From positions 7,997-71,996 of the forward strand of contig CAYQPO010000002.1 in NCBI GenBank assembly GCA_964420015.1: a stretch of DNA of 64,000 nucleotides, in the 5' to 3' direction. Positions 24,673-61,007 of the stretch are shown here, one piece after another; the stretch's first letter is position 1, and each line of letters opens with the position of its first letter. The stretch is from an uncultured Candidatus Saccharibacteria bacterium (GTDB lineage: Bacteria > Patescibacteriota > Minisyncoccia > Phycocordibacterales > SBAW01). The notes under the pieces were generated by a model. It saw only the letters and a program-made list of their open reading frames with translations. It was not told where the DNA came from and did no database searches. Made by a program: the position numbers and the translations under genes.

Positions 24673-25047
24673 TGGTGGAGATGCCGGAAATCGAATCCGG
24701 GTGCAACAACTAGCAAACTGTGCTTCTACGAAGCGTAGAGCGTCTTAGATTCTCGTCTTGCTGCATCAAAGATGCTCAAAAGCGCAGCAAGATACAGTTC
24801 AAGTCTTAGTTAGGGTAGGGAACAGCTACCCCAAAGCAGTGTGGTGATATAACAGCGTACTTTCTCTCACACACTTTGAGAAAGCGCCGACGACTAGGCT
24901 ATAGCGTAAGCGAAGTCGAAATCATTCGCCGCAAAATACGGCGATGCAACTGATTTGCCAGTTAGAGTTTGGAGCAGTTTAAAGAAGTACTCCAGTTCTG
25001 CCTCGCACATCAATTTGCGACAGTTATTGTCTAAGCCTGTCATCCCC
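24673..25047 (-). ncRNA. ssrA: tmRNA (SsrA), ~375 nt
   Basis: 3' end ...ACCCGGATTCGATTTCCGGCATCTCCACCA: T-arm, acceptor strand, encoded CCA. 5' end GGGGATG pairs with CATCTCC, giving the G3-U70 Ala identity pair. Internal frame GCG GCG AAT GAT TTC GAC TTC GCT TAC GCT ATA GCC TAG reads (A)ANDFDFAYAIA*. Lies 49 nt downstream of smpB on the same strand. Confidence 0.6.
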
Positions 25048-29434: not shown

Positions 29435-29509
29435 GCGCGAGTAGCTCAGTGGTAGAGCGTCCGTCTTATACACGGATGGTCGTAGGTTCGATCCCTACCT
29501 CGCGCACCA
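29435..29509 (+). tRNA. tRNA-Ile, anticodon UAU (reads AUA)
   Basis: cloverleaf GCGCGAG/TA/GCTC..GAGC/G/TCCGT-CTTATAC-ACGGA/TGGTC/GTAGG-TTCGATC-CCTAC/CTCGCGC-A-CCA. Confidence 0.8.
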
Positions 29510-34243: not shown

Positions 34244-34323
34244 CGGGGTCTTAAGCATTTGAACCGTCAGCAGCGCATCGGCGCTCTACGTACTAGCACA
34301 TCTCCAACACTTTTTGTCAAGGG

Positions 34324-34410
34324 CGGAGAGGGAGGGATTCGAACCCTCGGTCCCCGTTAAGGGACAACAACTTAGCAGGTTGCTGCATTCGACCGCTCTG
34401 CCACCTCTCC
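34324..34410 (-). tRNA. tRNA-Ser, anticodon GCU (long variable arm)
   Basis: GGAGAGG acceptor, anticodon loop CTGCTAA, long variable arm, T-arm GAGGGTTCGAATCCCTC. Confidence 0.8.
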
Positions 34411-34560
34411 AATAGCAAACACTTTAGCACTTTCAGGCCCAGTGGTACACTGCAAACGCAGAGAGAGAGTTACTCACCCCTCTCATCTAGGTTAAACCTA
34501 GGCGCTCTAAAAAATCACTTTGAAAATCTTTCTATTTTCTTACAAATCCGTTACCATATA

Positions 34561-50946: not shown

Positions 50947-51557
50947 AGCTGTACCAAAAAAATCCAAAGGGTTTTACGTTGATTGAGATCCTGGTCTCAG
51001 TGGCAATTTTTGCGATTGTGATGGTGATCTCGCTCGGCGCACTGCTCGCCATGTCCGAGAGCGATCGCAAGGCCCAGACGCTCAAGTCGGTCATCAACAA
51101 TCTTAACTTTTCGCTCGACTCTATATCGCGCGCGATCCGCACTGGCCAAAATTATCACTGCGATATAACGCAGACGCCGCTTGCTGCTCCGCTCGACTGC
51201 GCGGTGTCCCCCGGGACCTCGATTGCGTTTGTGCCTTCGGGCGGAGGGACCACCATGTACAAGTTTGAGAGTGCGAGCGCCAGTATCTGCGGGCAGTCGG
51301 GCACCGTGGGGTGCATCACCCGCTCGACCGACGGCGGTGCGACGTTTGCCGCTATCACCGCACCCGAGGTGGTGGTTTCTTCGATGAAGTTCTACGTCAC
51401 GGGCGCGCAGAGTGCCGGGATCCAACCAAAAGTGACCATTTTGCTCTCTGGCGTGGTTGCTCCCAAGGGGGTGGTGGCCAACTGCGGGGGGCAATCGTCC
51501 GCTTCGACCTGCTTTAACCTCCAGACCACCGTGACGCAGCGTCTCTACGACCAATGA
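50940..51557 (+). CDS. minor pilin
   Basis: KGFTLIEILVSVAIFAIV. Confidence 0.75.
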   Translation: MLKLYQKNPKGFTLIEILVSVAIFAIVMVISLGALLAMSESDRKAQTLKSVINNLNFSLDSISRAIRTGQNYHCDITQTPLAAPLDCAVSPGTSIAFVPSGGGTTMYKFESASASICGQSGTVGCITRSTDGGATFAAITAPEVVVSSMKFYVTGAQSAGIQPKVTILLSGVVAPKGVVANCGGQSSASTCFNLQTTVTQRLYDQ

Positions 51558-52141
51558 TAAAAAAAATCTTCAATAGGGGTTTTACTCTAATCGAGACACT
51601 GGTCGCGGTGCTTTTGCTCGCCTCAGCGATTGCAGGACCGCTCACGATTGCCTCCAAAGGTCTCTCTGCAGCATTGGTGGCCAAAGACCAAATTACCGCA
51701 TTCTTTCTTGCACAAGACGCGATGGAGCAGGTGCGTTTTTTGCGCGACAGCGCGTGTCTTGCCTCAGGCGGCGGGGCAGGGGGCTGTGCTGCGAATGTAT
51801 GGCTCTCTTCTCTGTCCCCGTGTGTGAGCACCGACGGCGTTGCCTCGTGCAAGCTCGACTCACTTGGCTTTTCACCCGCAAACCCGGTCGCATGCGATGC
51901 GGCTAGCTGCTCTGCGAGCACCGATGTCTTGCACTTCGACAGTACGAACAACAGCTTTAATTACAATCAGTCTGCACCGCTGAGCACGCAGCGCTATGTG
52001 CGTGTTATCCAAATCCAAAACGACCCCAACGGCACCGCCCCCGACGAGGCAGTAGTCACGGTTAAAGTAAGCTGGAGTGACATCGCCGGGGTCACGCATG
52101 CGCCGATCATTGTGCGAGAAGATATATTCAGATGGCAATAA
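51554..52141 (+). CDS. minor pilin
   Basis: RGFTLIETLVAVLLLAS. Confidence 0.75.
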   Translation: MIKKIFNRGFTLIETLVAVLLLASAIAGPLTIASKGLSAALVAKDQITAFFLAQDAMEQVRFLRDSACLASGGGAGGCAANVWLSSLSPCVSTDGVASCKLDSLGFSPANPVACDAASCSASTDVLHFDSTNNSFNYNQSAPLSTQRYVRVIQIQNDPNGTAPDEAVVTVKVSWSDIAGVTHAPIIVREDIFRWQ

Positions 52142-52632
52142 ATAATCGAGGGTTTACAATCTTTTTTGCAATGCTGGTGGGCGCTTTGGCGCTCGCGGTT
52201 GGCGCGGCAATCTACGACCTCACGGTGCGCGAGATCGACCTCTCTAACACAGCAACGCAGTCGCAGTACGCCATTTATGTTGCCGACACGGGTGCTGAGT
52301 GTGCGCTCTACTGGGACCTTAAATGCAGTTTGGGGGCGTGTTTTGCAGGGAGCGCGTTTGCCACCTCGAGCCACTCAACCGTGCCCGGCTCAGGAGCATC
52401 CTGCAGTGGGCAAGACATCGCCGCGGGGTGGACCGTCGACACCGCGGAGAGCGCTGCGACCACCACCTTTAAACTCACCTTTTTGCCTCAGCCCTATTGC
52501 GTCTTGGTAACGGTGGCTAAGCGCGGCAACCCAACACTCACCACGATCGTCTCGCACGGCTACAACACCAGCTGTCCACCGGGGACCCCAACAGCAACCC
52601 GTCTTGAACGCACCTTGCAGGTAGACTACTAA
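52132..52632 (+). CDS. minor pilin-like protein (atypical, no Glu+5)
   Basis: NRGFTIFFAMLVGALALAV. Confidence 0.55.
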   Translation: MAINNRGFTIFFAMLVGALALAVGAAIYDLTVREIDLSNTATQSQYAIYVADTGAECALYWDLKCSLGACFAGSAFATSSHSTVPGSGASCSGQDIAAGWTVDTAESAATTTFKLTFLPQPYCVLVTVAKRGNPTLTTIVSHGYNTSCPPGTPTATRLERTLQVDY

Positions 52633-54693: not shown

Positions 54694-54723
54694 TTGACAA
54701 CATATCTCTCGGTATAGTATAGT
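54694..54723 (+). promoter_or_regulatory. strong promoter TTGACA-N18-TATAGT driving the DGR target gene
   Basis: seen in sequence; ~135-nt leader with a good SD (AAAGGAGGA) before ATG 54859. Confidence 0.5.
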
Positions 54724-54858
54724 AGAGTGTCAGTTCTTTGATAGGGAATCAGCATTCGCCGCAGCGAAAAGCGCCTTTATTAGGACGTTTCTCGCTGTGG
54801 CGGACCCGATCGGGGACGCTTGAACGGCACTGTGAAAAGCGCTCAAAAGGAGGACTCC

Positions 54859-55521
54859 ATGAGCGAACGACAGCTTGCTGAACTCACCGGCAATCTCGTG
54901 CGGCACCAGCACTGCTTCGGTGCGATGTCGAACGACGACCGTCAGTGGACAATCAACAATCCGGCGGCGGCGATTGGCCTGTTTGCCGAGGCGGTGAAGA
55001 ACCGCAACAGCGGTACGGCGGCCGAGCGGAAGTCGCTCGAAAAGAAGAAGCAGCCAAAGCTTCTTGTCTCGGACGGCCACTACGCAGCCGTCGAGGCCAC
55101 TGAGCGTCACGAACCAGGTACGTTCTGGCAGACGCGCTCCGGCTTGTACGTGTACGACGACTTTCGTACACGCGTCGTCGCGGCAGCCACGCCGACCGAA
55201 GCTGGAGCGACGTTCAAGAAGCTCCCGCGCTTCAAGCTCGGCCGTAATGCCACTGGCGAGGAATTGAAGACGGCGCGTCCGAATGGTATTTGGACGGCGA
55301 CCGACTTCTGCCCCTGGCTTGCCGCAAAGCTTGCAAAGCAGGCGAAAGGCGAGGACGGTGAGTTCCTCACCAACGGTTGGGCCAACCTATTCTTGGTCGA
55401 AGGAGTTGGAGGCGAGGTCTTCGTCGTCCGCGTGCGCTGGGGCGTCGGCTTGTGGCTCGTCTACGCGTGGCCTCTCGGCCACGGCTGGCACGATGGTCGC
55501 CAGTTCGGCTCTCGCAACTGA
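54859..55521 (+). CDS. DGR variable (target) protein with C-terminal C-type-lectin-like variable region
   Basis: 220 aa; start inside ORF 54820; the C-terminal 36 codons coincide with the VR; ends ...WHDGRQFGSRN*. Confidence 0.8.
   Translation: MSERQLAELTGNLVRHQHCFGAMSNDDRQWTINNPAAAIGLFAEAVKNRNSGTAAERKSLEKKKQPKLLVSDGHYAAVEATERHEPGTFWQTRSGLYVYDDFRTRVVAAATPTEAGATFKKLPRFKLGRNATGEELKTARPNGIWTATDFCPWLAAKLAKQAKGEDGEFLTNGWANLFLVEGVGGEVFVVRVRWGVGLWLVYAWPLGHGWHDGRQFGSRN
55409..55519 (+). repeat. DGR variable repeat (VR)
   Basis: ~109-111 bp; identical to the TR at 55847-55957 except at 20-21 positions, every one a TR adenine. Confidence 0.9.
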
Positions 55522-55537
55522 CCAATTGCAACTTTGT

Positions 55538-55558
55538 GCGCCCGCCTAAGGCGGGCGC
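55538..55558 (+). promoter_or_regulatory. GC-rich hairpin just downstream of VR/IMH (DGR homing cruciform-like element)
   Basis: gcgcccgcc-taa-ggcgggcgc, 9-bp stem, 3-nt loop, 17 nt after the VR end; a second IR, ccccttgga...tccaagggg, lies at 55564-55612. Confidence 0.6.
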
Positions 55559-55846
55559 ATTGACCCCTTGGACACTCTGGCACTGTGCCGGAATCCAAGG
55601 GGTCTTTCGTTTTGATATAATGGCCCTGAAACCTTTGGTGATGCGGCGGTTAGGGCTTCCGTGTGGAGGTTTTGGAAGAGACAAATGCCTGAGTTCTTGC
55701 GGCCAAGGCTTCAAGAAGAGTGCGTTGAATCTTTCTAAAAAATAATTGGTAGTTGGTACTTGAAATTGGCGGACTTATAAGGTCCCACATTCGATACAGC
55801 CCGGAGAGTATTCGGTGGGTGGTGGTTCAGAAGGTTTCGAGTACGA

Positions 55847-55957
55847 GAGGCGAGGTCTTCGTCGTCAACGTGAACTGGAACGACGGCAAGTGGAACGTCA
55901 ACACGTGGCAACTCGGCAACGACTGGAACGATGGTAACCAGTTCGGCTCTCGCAACT
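55847..55957 (+). repeat. DGR template repeat (TR)
   Basis: contains 8 AAC plus AAG and CAA codons at the positions that vary in the VR; followed by a hairpin tctctcgc-N10-gcgagaga. Confidence 0.9.
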
Positions 55958-55977
55958 CTAGTGATTTCTCTCGCGCT

Positions 55978-56265
55978 CTATGGTGCGAGAGTTTTTGCAA
56001 CCAACCCTTTTCTCCACCCGCCTAGTATGCGTCCAAGTTCGTGCGTTTTTTCTGATAGATTCACGTATTTTTTATCGTCTAGCGCCTGCAGTTCCCATGC
56101 GACACGCAGAAGGAATTTTAACGTATCCGTTTTCTTGATTGCAATTTCAATCGTTGGCAACTTGTTTGCTCGACCCTGGTAACTCGCTGTAAAGAGCAAT
56201 TCAAGGATTTGAATAAACAAGCTATCTATTTTATCGCCAAGCGTATAGCGAGACTTTTTCGGCAA
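55978..56265 (-). CDS. avd: DGR accessory variability determinant (Avd, four-helix-bundle); start codon apparently lost to a frameshift in the G11/C11 tract
   Basis: aligns to Bordetella-phage bAvd (HLPKKSRYTLGDKI~IPRKHGVAREM; ...HELGRILGGW~EVGRILGSW). In-frame helix-1 coding continues upstream to 56355 with no start codon; the ATG at 56380 is off by one frame across the homopolymer. Confidence 0.7.
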   Translation of the reverse strand: MPKKSRYTLGDKIDSLFIQILELLFTASYQGRANKLPTIEIAIKKTDTLKFLLRVAWELQALDDKKYVNLSEKTHELGRILGGWRKGLVAKTLAP

Positions 56266-56307
56266 ATGGTCGCGGCATTCGTGCCAAAACTTGTATACTG
56301 CTACAGC

Positions 56308-57335
56308 ATGCTCGATAACAGGAAGAATTCGTTGGGGGGGGGGGTCGTAAAGGACTCACGCATACATACGAGAATATCATTTCTGTTGAAAACTTGCTCT
56401 CTGCGTGGCGCGAGTTCTGTCTTGGCAAACAAATTAAAAAATATTTAAGGGATTTTCAATTTTTTTGGATGGACACATTTCTTTGCTTTCATTCCGATTT
56501 AAAAAAAAAACCATAAAAACACGGACGATATCACGCCTTCAACATCTCCGACCCAAAACCGCGCAACATTCACAAGGCCTCGGTACGCGATCGTCTGCTC
56601 CACCATGCCATCTACCGAATATTGTATCCATATTTTGATAAGAAATTTGTATTCGATTCCTATTCTTGCAGGATAGGCAAGGGCACCCACAAGGCCATGA
56701 ACCGCTTCCGATCTTTTGCCTACCAAGTGTCCAAAAACCACACCCGCACTTGCTGGGTACTCAAGTGCGACATCCGTAAGTTCTTTGCGAGCATTGACCA
56801 CCAGATACTGTACGCAATCCTCGAAAAGTACATACAAGACGAGGCAATGCTCTGGTTGCTTCGAGAAGTTGTTAATAGTTTTTCATCAAGGTCGAACCTT
56901 GATGTTGGTCTGCCGCTCGGCAATCTCACGAGTCAGCTTTTGGTCAACGTTTACCTAAACGAGTTCGACCAGTATGTGAAGCACCAACTCAAGGTTAAGT
57001 ACTACATCCGCTACGCGGACGACTTCGTGCTCCTTTCGCACGACAAATCGGTACTACAACAAACACTTCCATATATGGAAGTGTTTCTGAGGGAGCATCT
57101 CAAACTAAGCTTCCATCCGGACAAGGTATACATTAAGACTCTGGCTTCGGGTGTCGACTTTCTCGGCTGGGTACACTTTGCTGACCACCGCGTGTTGCGT
57201 ACTGCTACCAAGCGACGGATGTTGCGACGGCTGTGCGAACGATTGGGGCAGGAGGGAGCAGAGGCAACGAGGCAGGCGTACTTGGGAATGTTGAGTCAAG
57301 GTAATACCAAAAAATTGCGGGACAGGTTAGTATAG
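56308..57335 (+). pseudogene. DGR reverse transcriptase, apparently disrupted (5' frameshift at the G11 tract plus an in-frame TAA at 56514 right after an A10 tract); intact ORF only 56622..57335
   Basis: frame-0 translation aligns with Bordetella Brt across the stop: ENIISVENLLSAWREF...DLKKKP*KHGRYHAFNISDPKPRNIHKASVRDRLL...CRIGKGTHKA...GLPLGNLTSQLLVNVY...YIRYADDFVLL (YxDD). Confidence 0.8.
56334..56344. repeat. homopolymeric G11 (C11) tract in the antisense overlap of the avd and RT 5' ends
   Basis: seen in sequence; the avd frame closes with run length 10/13, the RT N-terminus from ATG 56308 with 9/12; the current 11 fits neither. Confidence 0.85.
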
Positions 57336-59753: not shown

Positions 59754-59826
59754 AGCGGGGTGGAGCAGTAGTAGCTCGTCAGGCTCATAACCTGAAGGTC
59801 GCAGGTGCAATTCCTGCCCCCGCAAC
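59754..59826 (+). tRNA. tRNA with CAU anticodon (Met; initiator/elongator/Ile2 not resolved)
   Basis: D-arm GAGC..GCTC, anticodon stem-loop TCAGG-CTCATAA-CCTGA, T-arm GCAGG-TGCAATT-CCTGC; apparent 1:72 mismatch; 3' CCA not encoded. Confidence 0.6.
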
Positions 59827-59829
59827 AAG

Positions 59830-60435
59830 ATGCAGGTGTTTTCGATACAAGAAGCGCTCAAATTTGGTTGGCATAAAACCAAAGCGCACAACAAGCTTGT
59901 GTTCCAAGTTGTGCTCACCCTCTTGGCTGTACAAGTGGCCGCAGCAATTGTGCAAAAGGTGCTTGCGGGCAGCGGACTGGGGTTTGTCGCGCAGGTGGTG
60001 CTCGGAGTGCTTTCTTTGGCGTTTGGGATTGGCGCAATGAAAATAGCACTTTTGCTCGCGCGCGGTGAGCACGCAAGCTATGCGCAGATTTGGCCAAGCT
60101 GGAGACTCTTTTGGTATTACCTAGGCGCCTCGCTTTTGGCAGTGCTCTGCATCATAGGCGGCCTGATCTTGCTCATCATCCCGGGGTTTATCATTGCGGT
60201 ACGGCTCTCGATGGTGCGATTCGAGGTAATCGACGGAGCGCACGTGAAATCAAGTCTACAAAAAAGTTGGGAACTTACCCGGGGCCACTTCTGGAAACTG
60301 CTCGGGTTTTTTATCACGATTATCCTCTTAAATATTCTTGGAGCGGTCTGTCTTCTGGTGGGCCTGCTCGTGACCATTCCCATCTCGATGCTCGCGTTCG
60401 CACACGTATATCTAAAGCTTAAAAATAGGGGATAA
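59830..60435 (+). CDS. hypothetical polytopic membrane protein (201 aa)
   Basis: 5-6 TM. Confidence 0.5.
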   Translation: MQVFSIQEALKFGWHKTKAHNKLVFQVVLTLLAVQVAAAIVQKVLAGSGLGFVAQVVLGVLSLAFGIGAMKIALLLARGEHASYAQIWPSWRLFWYYLGASLLAVLCIIGGLILLIIPGFIIAVRLSMVRFEVIDGAHVKSSLQKSWELTRGHFWKLLGFFITIILLNILGAVCLLVGLLVTIPISMLAFAHVYLKLKNRG

Positions 60436-60495
60436 GTATATTCGAACACTGGTTTTAGGCTAGAATAGAACTTCAGTGTTTGGTGTAGAGATGTC

Positions 60496-60813
60496 GTGCT
60501 TACACCCCATCAAAAGAAGCTGCTGAACCAACGTGAAGCTAAGGGAAGAAGGTTGGGAAGTATAGAGGATATAAGGCCGTACTTGTATATTAGAGAGGTT
60601 CATAAACCGAGAGTAAACAAAATCTTGCAATTTTGGTCTAATTTTTTAAGTCTACCAAAAGAACAATTTCCCGTTATTATTTATATAAAAAATAAACATA
60701 AAAAAGTTTACGAAAATCACGATTCGTATTATGGTGTAATAGCTTTACGGGTAAGGGCCGGGACAGAATTAAAATATAAAATCTTAGGCCTCATTAAGGC
60801 CTGTAAAGAAGAA
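60496..60813 (+). CDS. AT-rich hypothetical ORF (foreign-looking); its 3' end reads into the tRNA gene
   Basis: ~35 % GC versus ~58 % around it; ORF 60496..60852 overlaps tRNA 60814..60887, so the C-terminus is probably artefactual or a remnant. Confidence 0.3.
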
Positions 60814-60887
60814 GCCGGGGTAGCTCAGATGGTTAGAGCATCACATTCATAACGTGAAGGTCGGCAGTTCGATCCTGCCCCCCGGCA
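60814..60887 (+). tRNA. tRNA-Met (CAU anticodon)
   Basis: GCCGGGG/TA/GCTC-AGATGGTTA-GAGC/A/TCACA-TTCATAA-CGTGA/AGGTC/GGCAG-TTCGATC-CTGCC/CCCCGGC-A. Confidence 0.7.
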
Positions 60888-60931
60888 CATGGTAGAAAAA
60901 TTCGTGTTTTTACGATAGAATCGCCTTGTTT

Positions 60932-61007
60932 GCGGGAGTAGCTCAGCTGGTTAGAGCGCCGCCCTGTCACGGCGGAGGTCGCGGGTTCGAACCCCGTCTC
61001 TCGCGCA
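60932..61007 (+). tRNA. tRNA-Asp (GUC anticodon)
   Basis: GCGGGAG acceptor, anticodon loop CTGTCAC, T-arm GCGGGTTCGAACCCCGT, discriminator G. Confidence 0.8.

Follow-up and report, generated by a model that had tools for sequence, protein, structure and literature searches.

Does a pair of similar repeats in the genome of an uncultured Candidatus Saccharibacteria bacterium belong to a diversity-generating retroelement (DGR) and, if it does, of what kind is the element and is it in working order? The repeats lie in a stretch of 64,000 nucleotides (contig CAYQPO010000002.1 of assembly GCA_964420015.1, positions 7,997 to 71,996), hereafter the window; all coordinates are positions in this window, which is the whole stretch analysed and not the DGR alone. 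An original prediction had read the region from 54694 to 57335 as a DGR, composed of a target gene that ends in a variable repeat (VR), a template repeat (TR), an accessory variability determinant gene (avd) on the opposite strand, and a reverse transcriptase (RT) gene. We conclude that the region is very probably a DGR of the Patescibacteria (candidate phyla radiation, CPR) clade, with the order target-VR, TR, opposite-strand avd and RT that is known as B3. The identification is supported by the adenine-specific differences between TR and VR, by an RT of the DGR type, by Avd, and by a GC-rich hairpin after VR. More tentatively, and with more doubt than confidence, we propose that CPR B3 DGRs have a dedicated, undescribed template RNA of about 375 nt, with two covarying 5′ domains and a TR-closing helix, as well as a selectively maintained tract of 8 to 14 Gs.

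Two repeats that differ at template adenines

A repeat search found a direct repeat of 111 nt, whose two copies lie 438 nt apart and are 82% identical. The first copy, VR (55409–55519, + strand), makes up the last 37 codons of the target gene, and the second, TR (55847–55957, + strand), contains nine AAC codons and 29 adenines. Compared base by base, the copies have 20 mismatches, and in all 20 the TR base is an A, replaced in VR by C (7), G (7) or T (6). The changed adenines are 20 of the 29 present in TR, and the probability of 20 mismatches in 111 nt being confined to these 29 As is 1.9×10−15. One more A-to-G difference is found one base upstream of the repeat (TR 55846, VR 55408). The original prediction, which had announced repeats of about 109 bp, some 440 bp apart, with A-only differences at 20 to 21 positions, is in agreement with this count, and realignment brought out no mismatch outside TR adenines. 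No third copy of the repeat is present in the 64 kb window.

In the target frame, which ends at 55521, 19 of the 20 VR changes affect codon positions 1 or 2. Thirteen codons are changed: AAC eight times, GAC twice, and AAG, ACG and CAA once each. The eight AAC codons, AAG and CAA had been foreseen; the total of twelve variable codons given with them was wrong, GAC (twice) and ACG being included in the actual 13. We computed a reachable target repertoire of 5×10^13, in line with the more than 10^12 variants expected, and of 5×10^16 when every A-containing codon is counted. The final 20 nt of VR and TR are identical despite three adenines, and the similarity then ends abruptly; this matches a putative 3′ boundary of the kind formed by the initiation of mutagenic homing (IMH) sequence.

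Eighteen nucleotides past the end of VR/TR identity, the predicted GC hairpin with a 3-nt loop is real: it is an inverted repeat with a 10-bp stem (55537–55559; −15 kcal/mol, z = −5.7), and only the closest relatives share it. Next comes a second hairpin, with a T-rich tail (55562–55613, + strand). It is the likely terminator of the target gene, and hairpin-plus-T-run counterparts exist in two related loci, L011 and L013.

Reverse transcriptase and Avd

The best match of the RT (56346–57335, + strand) in the PDB was the BPP-1 enzyme bRT (8ub7), with E = 3×10−42, 148 bits and a nearly full-length alignment, whereas retron and group II RTs reached 67 bits at most. The kinship with Bordetella Brt that had been claimed is thereby borne out. 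The protein also matches Pfam RVT_1, and LGNLTSQ and YADD can be read in its translation; [I/L]GxxxSQ is a motif of DGR-clade RTs. At least 8000 homologs were found, every scored candidate being significant, and the 120 listed are 64–75% identical to the window RT, those with a name coming mostly from Patescibacteria. The gene that follows TR on the opposite strand (avd, 55978–56328, − strand), previously described as Avd-like, passes the Pfam bAvd cut-off (50.8 bits for a cut-off of 40).

Related loci and the B3 architecture

Related loci were collected by a scan with an alignment of nine closer target sequences, and by a search with an RT alignment, which recovered 80 metagenome loci. In most of the 80, a minus-strand avd immediately precedes RT. 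In about 40 loci, TR is placed between a conserved RNA element, described below, and the 3′ end of avd, with VR about 430–480 nt upstream in most of them, and TR adenines account for all, or nearly all, of the TR/VR mismatches (for example 26 of 26, 19 of 19 and 18 of 18). L011 and L013 have the same target family and the same architecture as the window.

The arrangement TR-(avd)-RT is architecture B3, found in 90% of CPR DGRs (Wu et al. 2018, PMC5758913). The window has this layout, TR being followed by opposite-strand avd and then by RT on the TR strand, and its element is therefore of a known kind; an avd in antisense orientation is nothing out of the ordinary. Gene order, orientation and host group are those of CPR B3 DGRs, the VR is likewise C-terminal and rich in AAC codons, and the target is without a recognisable domain, as are the CPR ‘UVR’ and ungrouped targets. 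Nothing essential is different; the target family is small. The close known group is DGR clade 2 of Roux et al. 2021 (PMC8144416).

Among the relatives are two further groups. Three loci, L007 (6536–7100), L008 and L010, have kept target, VR and TR, with a 440 nt spacing and A-type mismatches, and have no avd or RT within 5 kb; L005/L009 (6001–6651) have the target alone, without TR. Judging from gene content, these targets would be either orphaned or served in trans. In the other group, four proteins (P0014, P0145, P0146 and P0147) have identical residues 1–167 and differ only at variable VR positions. P0145 and P0147 are rich in Asn, the residue of an unmutated AAC codon. This cluster is direct evidence of natural diversification in the homologous target family.

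A proposed structured template RNA

TR appears to be made as an RNA of its own, about 375 nt long, that would extend from just past the terminator of the target gene to a hairpin and U-run lying over the avd stop codon. The model of this RNA came from the comparison of about 50 related loci. Its putative promoter is an extended −10 element, TGATATAAT (55613–55621, + strand), located directly after the two hairpins of the target. The motif TGnTAnnAT is present in 20 of 44 related loci, at 113–120 nt upstream of the core domain of the RNA in 16 of these 20.

This core domain (55756–55844, + strand) consists of a 12-bp closing stem, P1 (55756–55767 with 55833–55844), which ends 2 nt before TR, and of two inner stems, P2 and P3. 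Over 32 loci, 95% of the cells of the alignment are paired, and double-sided changes occur in 18 of the 23 pairs. The number of cells with double-sided changes was 178, versus 54 in shuffles, and the covariation score was 0.70, versus 0.10–0.18 when pairing partners were slid. Searching with nhmmer, the core was found in 52 sources, and in 51 of them it was on the RT strand, just 5′ of TR. One candidate stem in the core, GAAUAC/GUAUUC, was rejected by eye (alignment A5), one of its sides being variable and the other invariant. Further upstream, the 5′ domain (55622–55735, + strand) is predicted from covariation to form two similar hairpins, with compensatory changes in 19 of 22 predicted pairs (16 loci).

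On the other side of TR, the 3′ flank is conserved over loci with different targets, in the form ...CGCAACUC, UCUUCAUUU, a hairpin stem CUCUCC/GGGAGAG, and a U-run. The UCUUCAUUU segment is complementary to AAAUGAAGA, just 5′ of P1, and the two would form a helix that we call P0. In the window, its candidate strands are AAAUAAUUGG (55740–55749, + strand) and CUAGUGAUUU (55958–55967, + strand), the latter immediately 3′ of TR. Cognate leader/flank duplexes had a mean energy of −5.61 kcal/mol, versus −3.54 for non-cognate ones; none of 20000 permutations was as good, and 13 of 26 cognate flanks ranked first or second. Next comes a terminator-like element (55968–55996, + strand), made of a hairpin of 10 pairs (55968–55991) plus TTTTT and overlapping the avd stop codon, in accordance with the claim that TR is followed by a hairpin of its own. 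Most of 51 related loci have a hairpin plus T-run in the corresponding position, and many of them share the CUCUCC/GGGAGAG stem.

Because P0 pairs the leader with the 10 nt 3′ of TR, TR would be held as a closed loop, with the core on one side of it and the terminal hairpin on the other. The leader (about 230 nt), P0 and the hairpin may together be a handle for recognition by RT-Avd and a priming platform, and the terminal hairpin, being conserved in sequence, may supply the priming end.

No Rfam family reached its gathering score in the window or in eight related loci. Below that score, 55683–55752 matched RT-15 (RF03018) weakly (E = 0.053; 20 bits for a gathering score of 82, with 131 model positions skipped), and this match was absent when a smaller stretch was searched. 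The leader hairpin at these positions is like the first RT-15 hairpin in its stem and loop letters (GCCUG...CAAG...GUGCG...GAAUCU), and in its flank as well. RT-15 and RT-10 are also structured RNAs beside an RT gene; RT-10 is the BPP-1 spacer, and the RT motifs have been proposed to serve DGRs (Weinberg et al. 2017, PMC5737381). Relative to the BPP-1 spacer RNA, the proposed platform would be analogous in role, not in position.

A poly-G tract at the avd/RT junction

The divergent, head-to-head junction of avd and RT contains a homopolymer of 11 Gs (56334–56344). Among 82 related loci (428 kb in all), 64 junction runs of at least G8 were counted, and a single other G or C run of 8 or more. 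The tract is present in 57 of the 69 loci with enough upstream DNA, and its length is 8 (7 loci), 9 (20), 10 (26), 11 (8), or 12 to 14 (one locus each). In most loci, an in-frame ATG of RT is found 8–25 nt downstream of the tract, and the TTG of avd 8–12 nt away on the other side; a conserved GGCAAA near the tract is the reverse complement of this avd TTG start. There, the two divergent genes are separated by a very short intergenic region with the tract at its core.

The situation is different in 20 loci, the window among them, where a start codon is lacking downstream of the tract. In eight, an in-frame start lies upstream and the tract is read through as Gly, and the other 12 have none, a ratio close to the expectation for random tract length. 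A slippage-prone switch would fit this, and so would unreliable assembly of the G run. In short-read assemblies nothing is less reliable than the length of a homopolymer; here, at least five contigs begin 10 nt or less from the tract, and the Logan contigs break there. The tract could function as a switch, a regulatory element or a structural element. It is unlikely to be the Shine-Dalgarno sequence of RT, several loci having a separate AAAGGA-like element between tract and ATG, and a −10 promoter directly upstream of it was also rejected, [CT]AAAAT being present in just 10 of 62 loci. Literature linking DGRs with homopolymers or phase variation was searched for and none was found.

The target protein

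The target gene (54859–55521, + strand) is preceded by AAGGAGG and encodes 220 aa, with VR at its 3′ end. Its homologs were 23 in 5.8 billion clusters; in their alignment the N-terminus varies and a core is conserved. The sources are Patescibacteria or Paceibacterota metagenome-assembled genomes (MAGs) where named, and metagenome contigs otherwise. No Pfam or NCBIfam family matched the 220-aa protein, and no PDB relative was found by sequence, a profile search included. In the homolog alignment, the C-terminal scaffold reads VFVVxVxWxxGxxxWxVxxWxLxxxWxAGxQFxSRN, where the x positions are the AAC codons; this scaffold had no Pfam match either.

An AlphaFold (AF2) model built on the homolog alignment had a mean predicted local distance difference test (pLDDT) value of 85.8 overall, with block means of 87–98 from residue 101 on. 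Residues 120–220 are predicted to form a strand, two helices and four strands, VR being C-terminal. A C-type-lectin fold is plausible. The predicted topology is similar to that of the C-type-lectin variable proteins of DGRs (TvpA 2y3c, Mtd, archaeal AvpA), in which VR is also C-terminal; in contrast to these, the window target has no sequence similarity to any PDB chain, and Foldseek searches with the model gave nothing significant in PDB or BFVD. Of the earlier claim that VR is a C-terminal C-type-lectin region, the C-terminal place is correct and the fold is weakly supported.

Condition of the window copy

Four Logan contigs (L001–L004), from three sequencing runs, overlap the region. The window sequence is matched without a difference by L003, with a one-base difference by L001, and, outside 56418–56516, without a difference by L002. 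Inside this interval, L002 and L004, independent assemblies of the same population obtained from two sequencing runs, depart from the window and have an intact RT, with TAC where the window has an in-frame TAA (56514–56516). Their RT is without a stop over 335 codons, and, as in the window, no start codon could be assigned to it.

The interval 56418–56516 is an anomalous patch of 99 nt. Between L002 and the window it shows 28 collinear substitutions, distributed as 9, 10 and 9 over codon positions 1, 2 and 3; they alter 20 codons, 18 of them non-synonymously. The substitutions favour T and A, and the GC content is 25%, versus 46% for the whole RT gene. One edge of the patch is where L004 starts, the other where L003 does. 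A run of ten As (56501–56510) and the Tyr-to-stop change are both contained in it. Poor sequence in the deposited contig is the most likely origin of the patch, a rare dead allele being the less likely alternative. Other explanations did not hold. A frameshift of RT at the A10 run is ruled out, as the translation is a single frame with one TAA. An alternative genetic code is made unlikely by ligA itself stopping at TAA, and by TAC being present at the RT site in the independent contigs. Recombination was rejected as the origin of the patch, no related locus being nearer to the window version than L002 (76%), and so was adenine mutagenesis of the DGR type, just six of the 28 changes starting from A.

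The missing start codons are a matter separate from the patch, because L001 and L002 agree in the junction sequence, G11 included. A run of 12 Gs would let RT begin at ATG 56308 or TTG 56332 and read MLDNRKNSLGGGGRKGLTHTYENII, in parallel with the N-termini called for relatives, such as MLNNGQKIPAGGGGRQRR in P0058.

Several observations weigh against the reading of the region as a DGR with the template RNA proposed above. The one frame of RT is broken by the TAA, at a site where Brt and all relatives have Tyr, and no in-frame ATG, GTG or TTG is available ahead of the conserved HTYENIIS motif. The avd gene has no canonical start, the TTG of its relatives being CTT here, and ATT at 56328–56326 is the sole candidate. 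Avd scored under the cut-off of NCBIfam DivGenRetAVD (68.8 bits for a cut-off of 80, E = 4×10−19). As for the RNA, the window's own P0 is weak (−2.9 kcal/mol), a single-sequence fold of the window RNA was no better than shuffles (z = −0.5), and we infer the ends of the RNA, the role of its leader and the mode of priming from conservation alone. The fold assignment of the target is weak. Finally, in the public protein collection, the 90% cluster of the window target has one member, with no VR variants, and so gives no sign of current activity at this particular locus.

Taken together, the defects of RT and avd raise the possibility that the DGR is dead in this genome, its RT and avd being pseudogenes and its VR a frozen record of past mutagenesis. 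The RT cannot be expressed from the copy as written in the window, and the loss of its start codon, at a junction common to two other contigs, lies outside the patch. To this can be added that no VR variant of the window target is on record, and that decay is seen in the relatives described above, which have no avd or RT within 5 kb (L007, L008, L010) or are reduced to the target (L005, L009). However, the TAA is inside the patch and is absent from two independent assemblies with an intact RT; the composition of the patch, in codon positions, non-synonymous changes and GC content, resembles bad sequence rather than an evolved allele; and outside it RT keeps all catalytic motifs and 64–75% identity to the listed homologs. 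As to the start, a single additional G opens an ORF parallel to that of a relative, and the length of a G run is the least reliable part of a short-read assembly. We therefore regard a dead element as unlikely, and the RT defect of the window as most likely a local sequence or assembly fault, possibly together with a miscounted G run.

It could also be supposed that the two repeats are an ordinary diverged duplication, lying near an unrelated RT of a group II intron, a retron or a defence system. NCBIfam did return sub-threshold matches to group II intron, Drt3a and retron RT models, and no DGR-RT model was among its matches. Against this stand the restriction of all 20 mismatches to TR adenines, the far better match of the solved DGR RT than of other RTs, the adjacency of Avd and RT, and the occurrence of the same arrangement, with A-specific mismatches, in about 40 loci. 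The A-specificity, the DGR-RT match and the recurrence already refute a mere duplication, to which we give next to no credence. A DGR of the CPR B3 type is the reading that we retain.

Surroundings of the element and other features of the window

At 54694–54723 (+ strand), 135 nt upstream of the start codon of the target, is a promoter-like TTGACA-N18-TATAGT. It had been called a strong promoter; the site and its distance are right, with 11 of 12 consensus positions, but this is a consensus match only, and such sites are no commoner in the region than in shuffles. The 135-nt 5′ untranslated region of the target (54724–54858) contains a palindrome (54800–54819) and an imperfect direct repeat of 18 nt (54757–54774 and 54825–54842). 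In GC content, the target gene stands at 62%, avd at 44%, RT at 46% and the whole window at 54.5%.

The DGR is placed, as predicted, between ligA and gatCAB. GatC and the amidase GatA were named from Pfam tags on identical Logan contigs, and ligA from a 43–45% identity to ORFs in two other loci and from the reading of its sequence. Since gatC and gatA come after RT, with the same junction, in the related locus L015 too, whose RT is 71% identical, the position of the DGR is inherited, and the recent insertion that had been implied is not upheld. In two more loci, L089 and L091, ligA is nearby.

Upstream of ligA (51554–52632) are two ORFs with N-termini of the type IV pilin or pseudopilin kind (GFTLIETLVAVLL; NRGFTIFFAMLVG). 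Transfer-messenger RNA and five tRNA genes are found at 24673–25047, 29435–29509, 34321–34411 and 59754–61006. The tRNA genes include one for tRNA-Ile (anticodon TAT) and two for tRNA-Met; no link to the DGR was seen.

Discussion

The window element and the BPP-1 DGR (mtd-VR, avd, TR, brt) have much in common: adenine-specific TR-to-VR differences, RTs homologous over their full length, an Avd of the four-helix-bundle family, identical 3′ ends of VR and TR, and a GC hairpin downstream of VR, at the position of the BPP-1 cruciform. They differ in the location of the conserved RNA structure, which is mainly 5′ of TR here, and corresponds in BPP-1 to the spacer (Rfam RT-10) 3′ of TR; here, a hairpin and U-run come within 10 nt after TR. 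They differ also in that the window element is chromosomal and not phage-borne, and that its target, a protein of 220 aa with no evident signal peptide, is not a tail fibre.

By the established DGR pathway, TR would be transcribed, and RT with Avd would copy it into cDNA, misincorporating opposite template adenines. This cDNA would replace VR at the 3′ end of the target gene, recoding at least 13 codons, mostly AAC. The outcome would be at least 10^13 variants of a small, possibly C-type-lectin-like, binding surface. Expression of RT (and Avd) may be under the control of the G tract, as a slippage-prone or regulatory switch. In lineages like that of the window, the RT frame would be opened only through the tract, and mutagenesis itself may then be phase-variable.

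At its simplest, the element is one more DGR, with a small uncharacterised target family, in a clade known to be rich in DGRs. The window also illustrates that a deposited MAG can hold a patch of bad sequence which makes an intact RT look like a pseudogene. The template RNA architecture, the G tract and the small, domain-less target family are the parts that deserve the attention of specialists. To our knowledge, the mechanism of DGR template RNA is understood almost wholly through BPP-1, in which the functional RNA is 3′ of TR. The structured leader, the TR-enclosing helix and the poly-G tract were not found described in the literature covered, Paul et al. 2017 being outside it. A different, strongly covarying RNA architecture, belonging to the DGR clade most abundant in the environment, would give a concrete construct to test, and the conserved homopolymer at the RT/avd junction suggests a control, also open to test, over when hypermutation is switched on.

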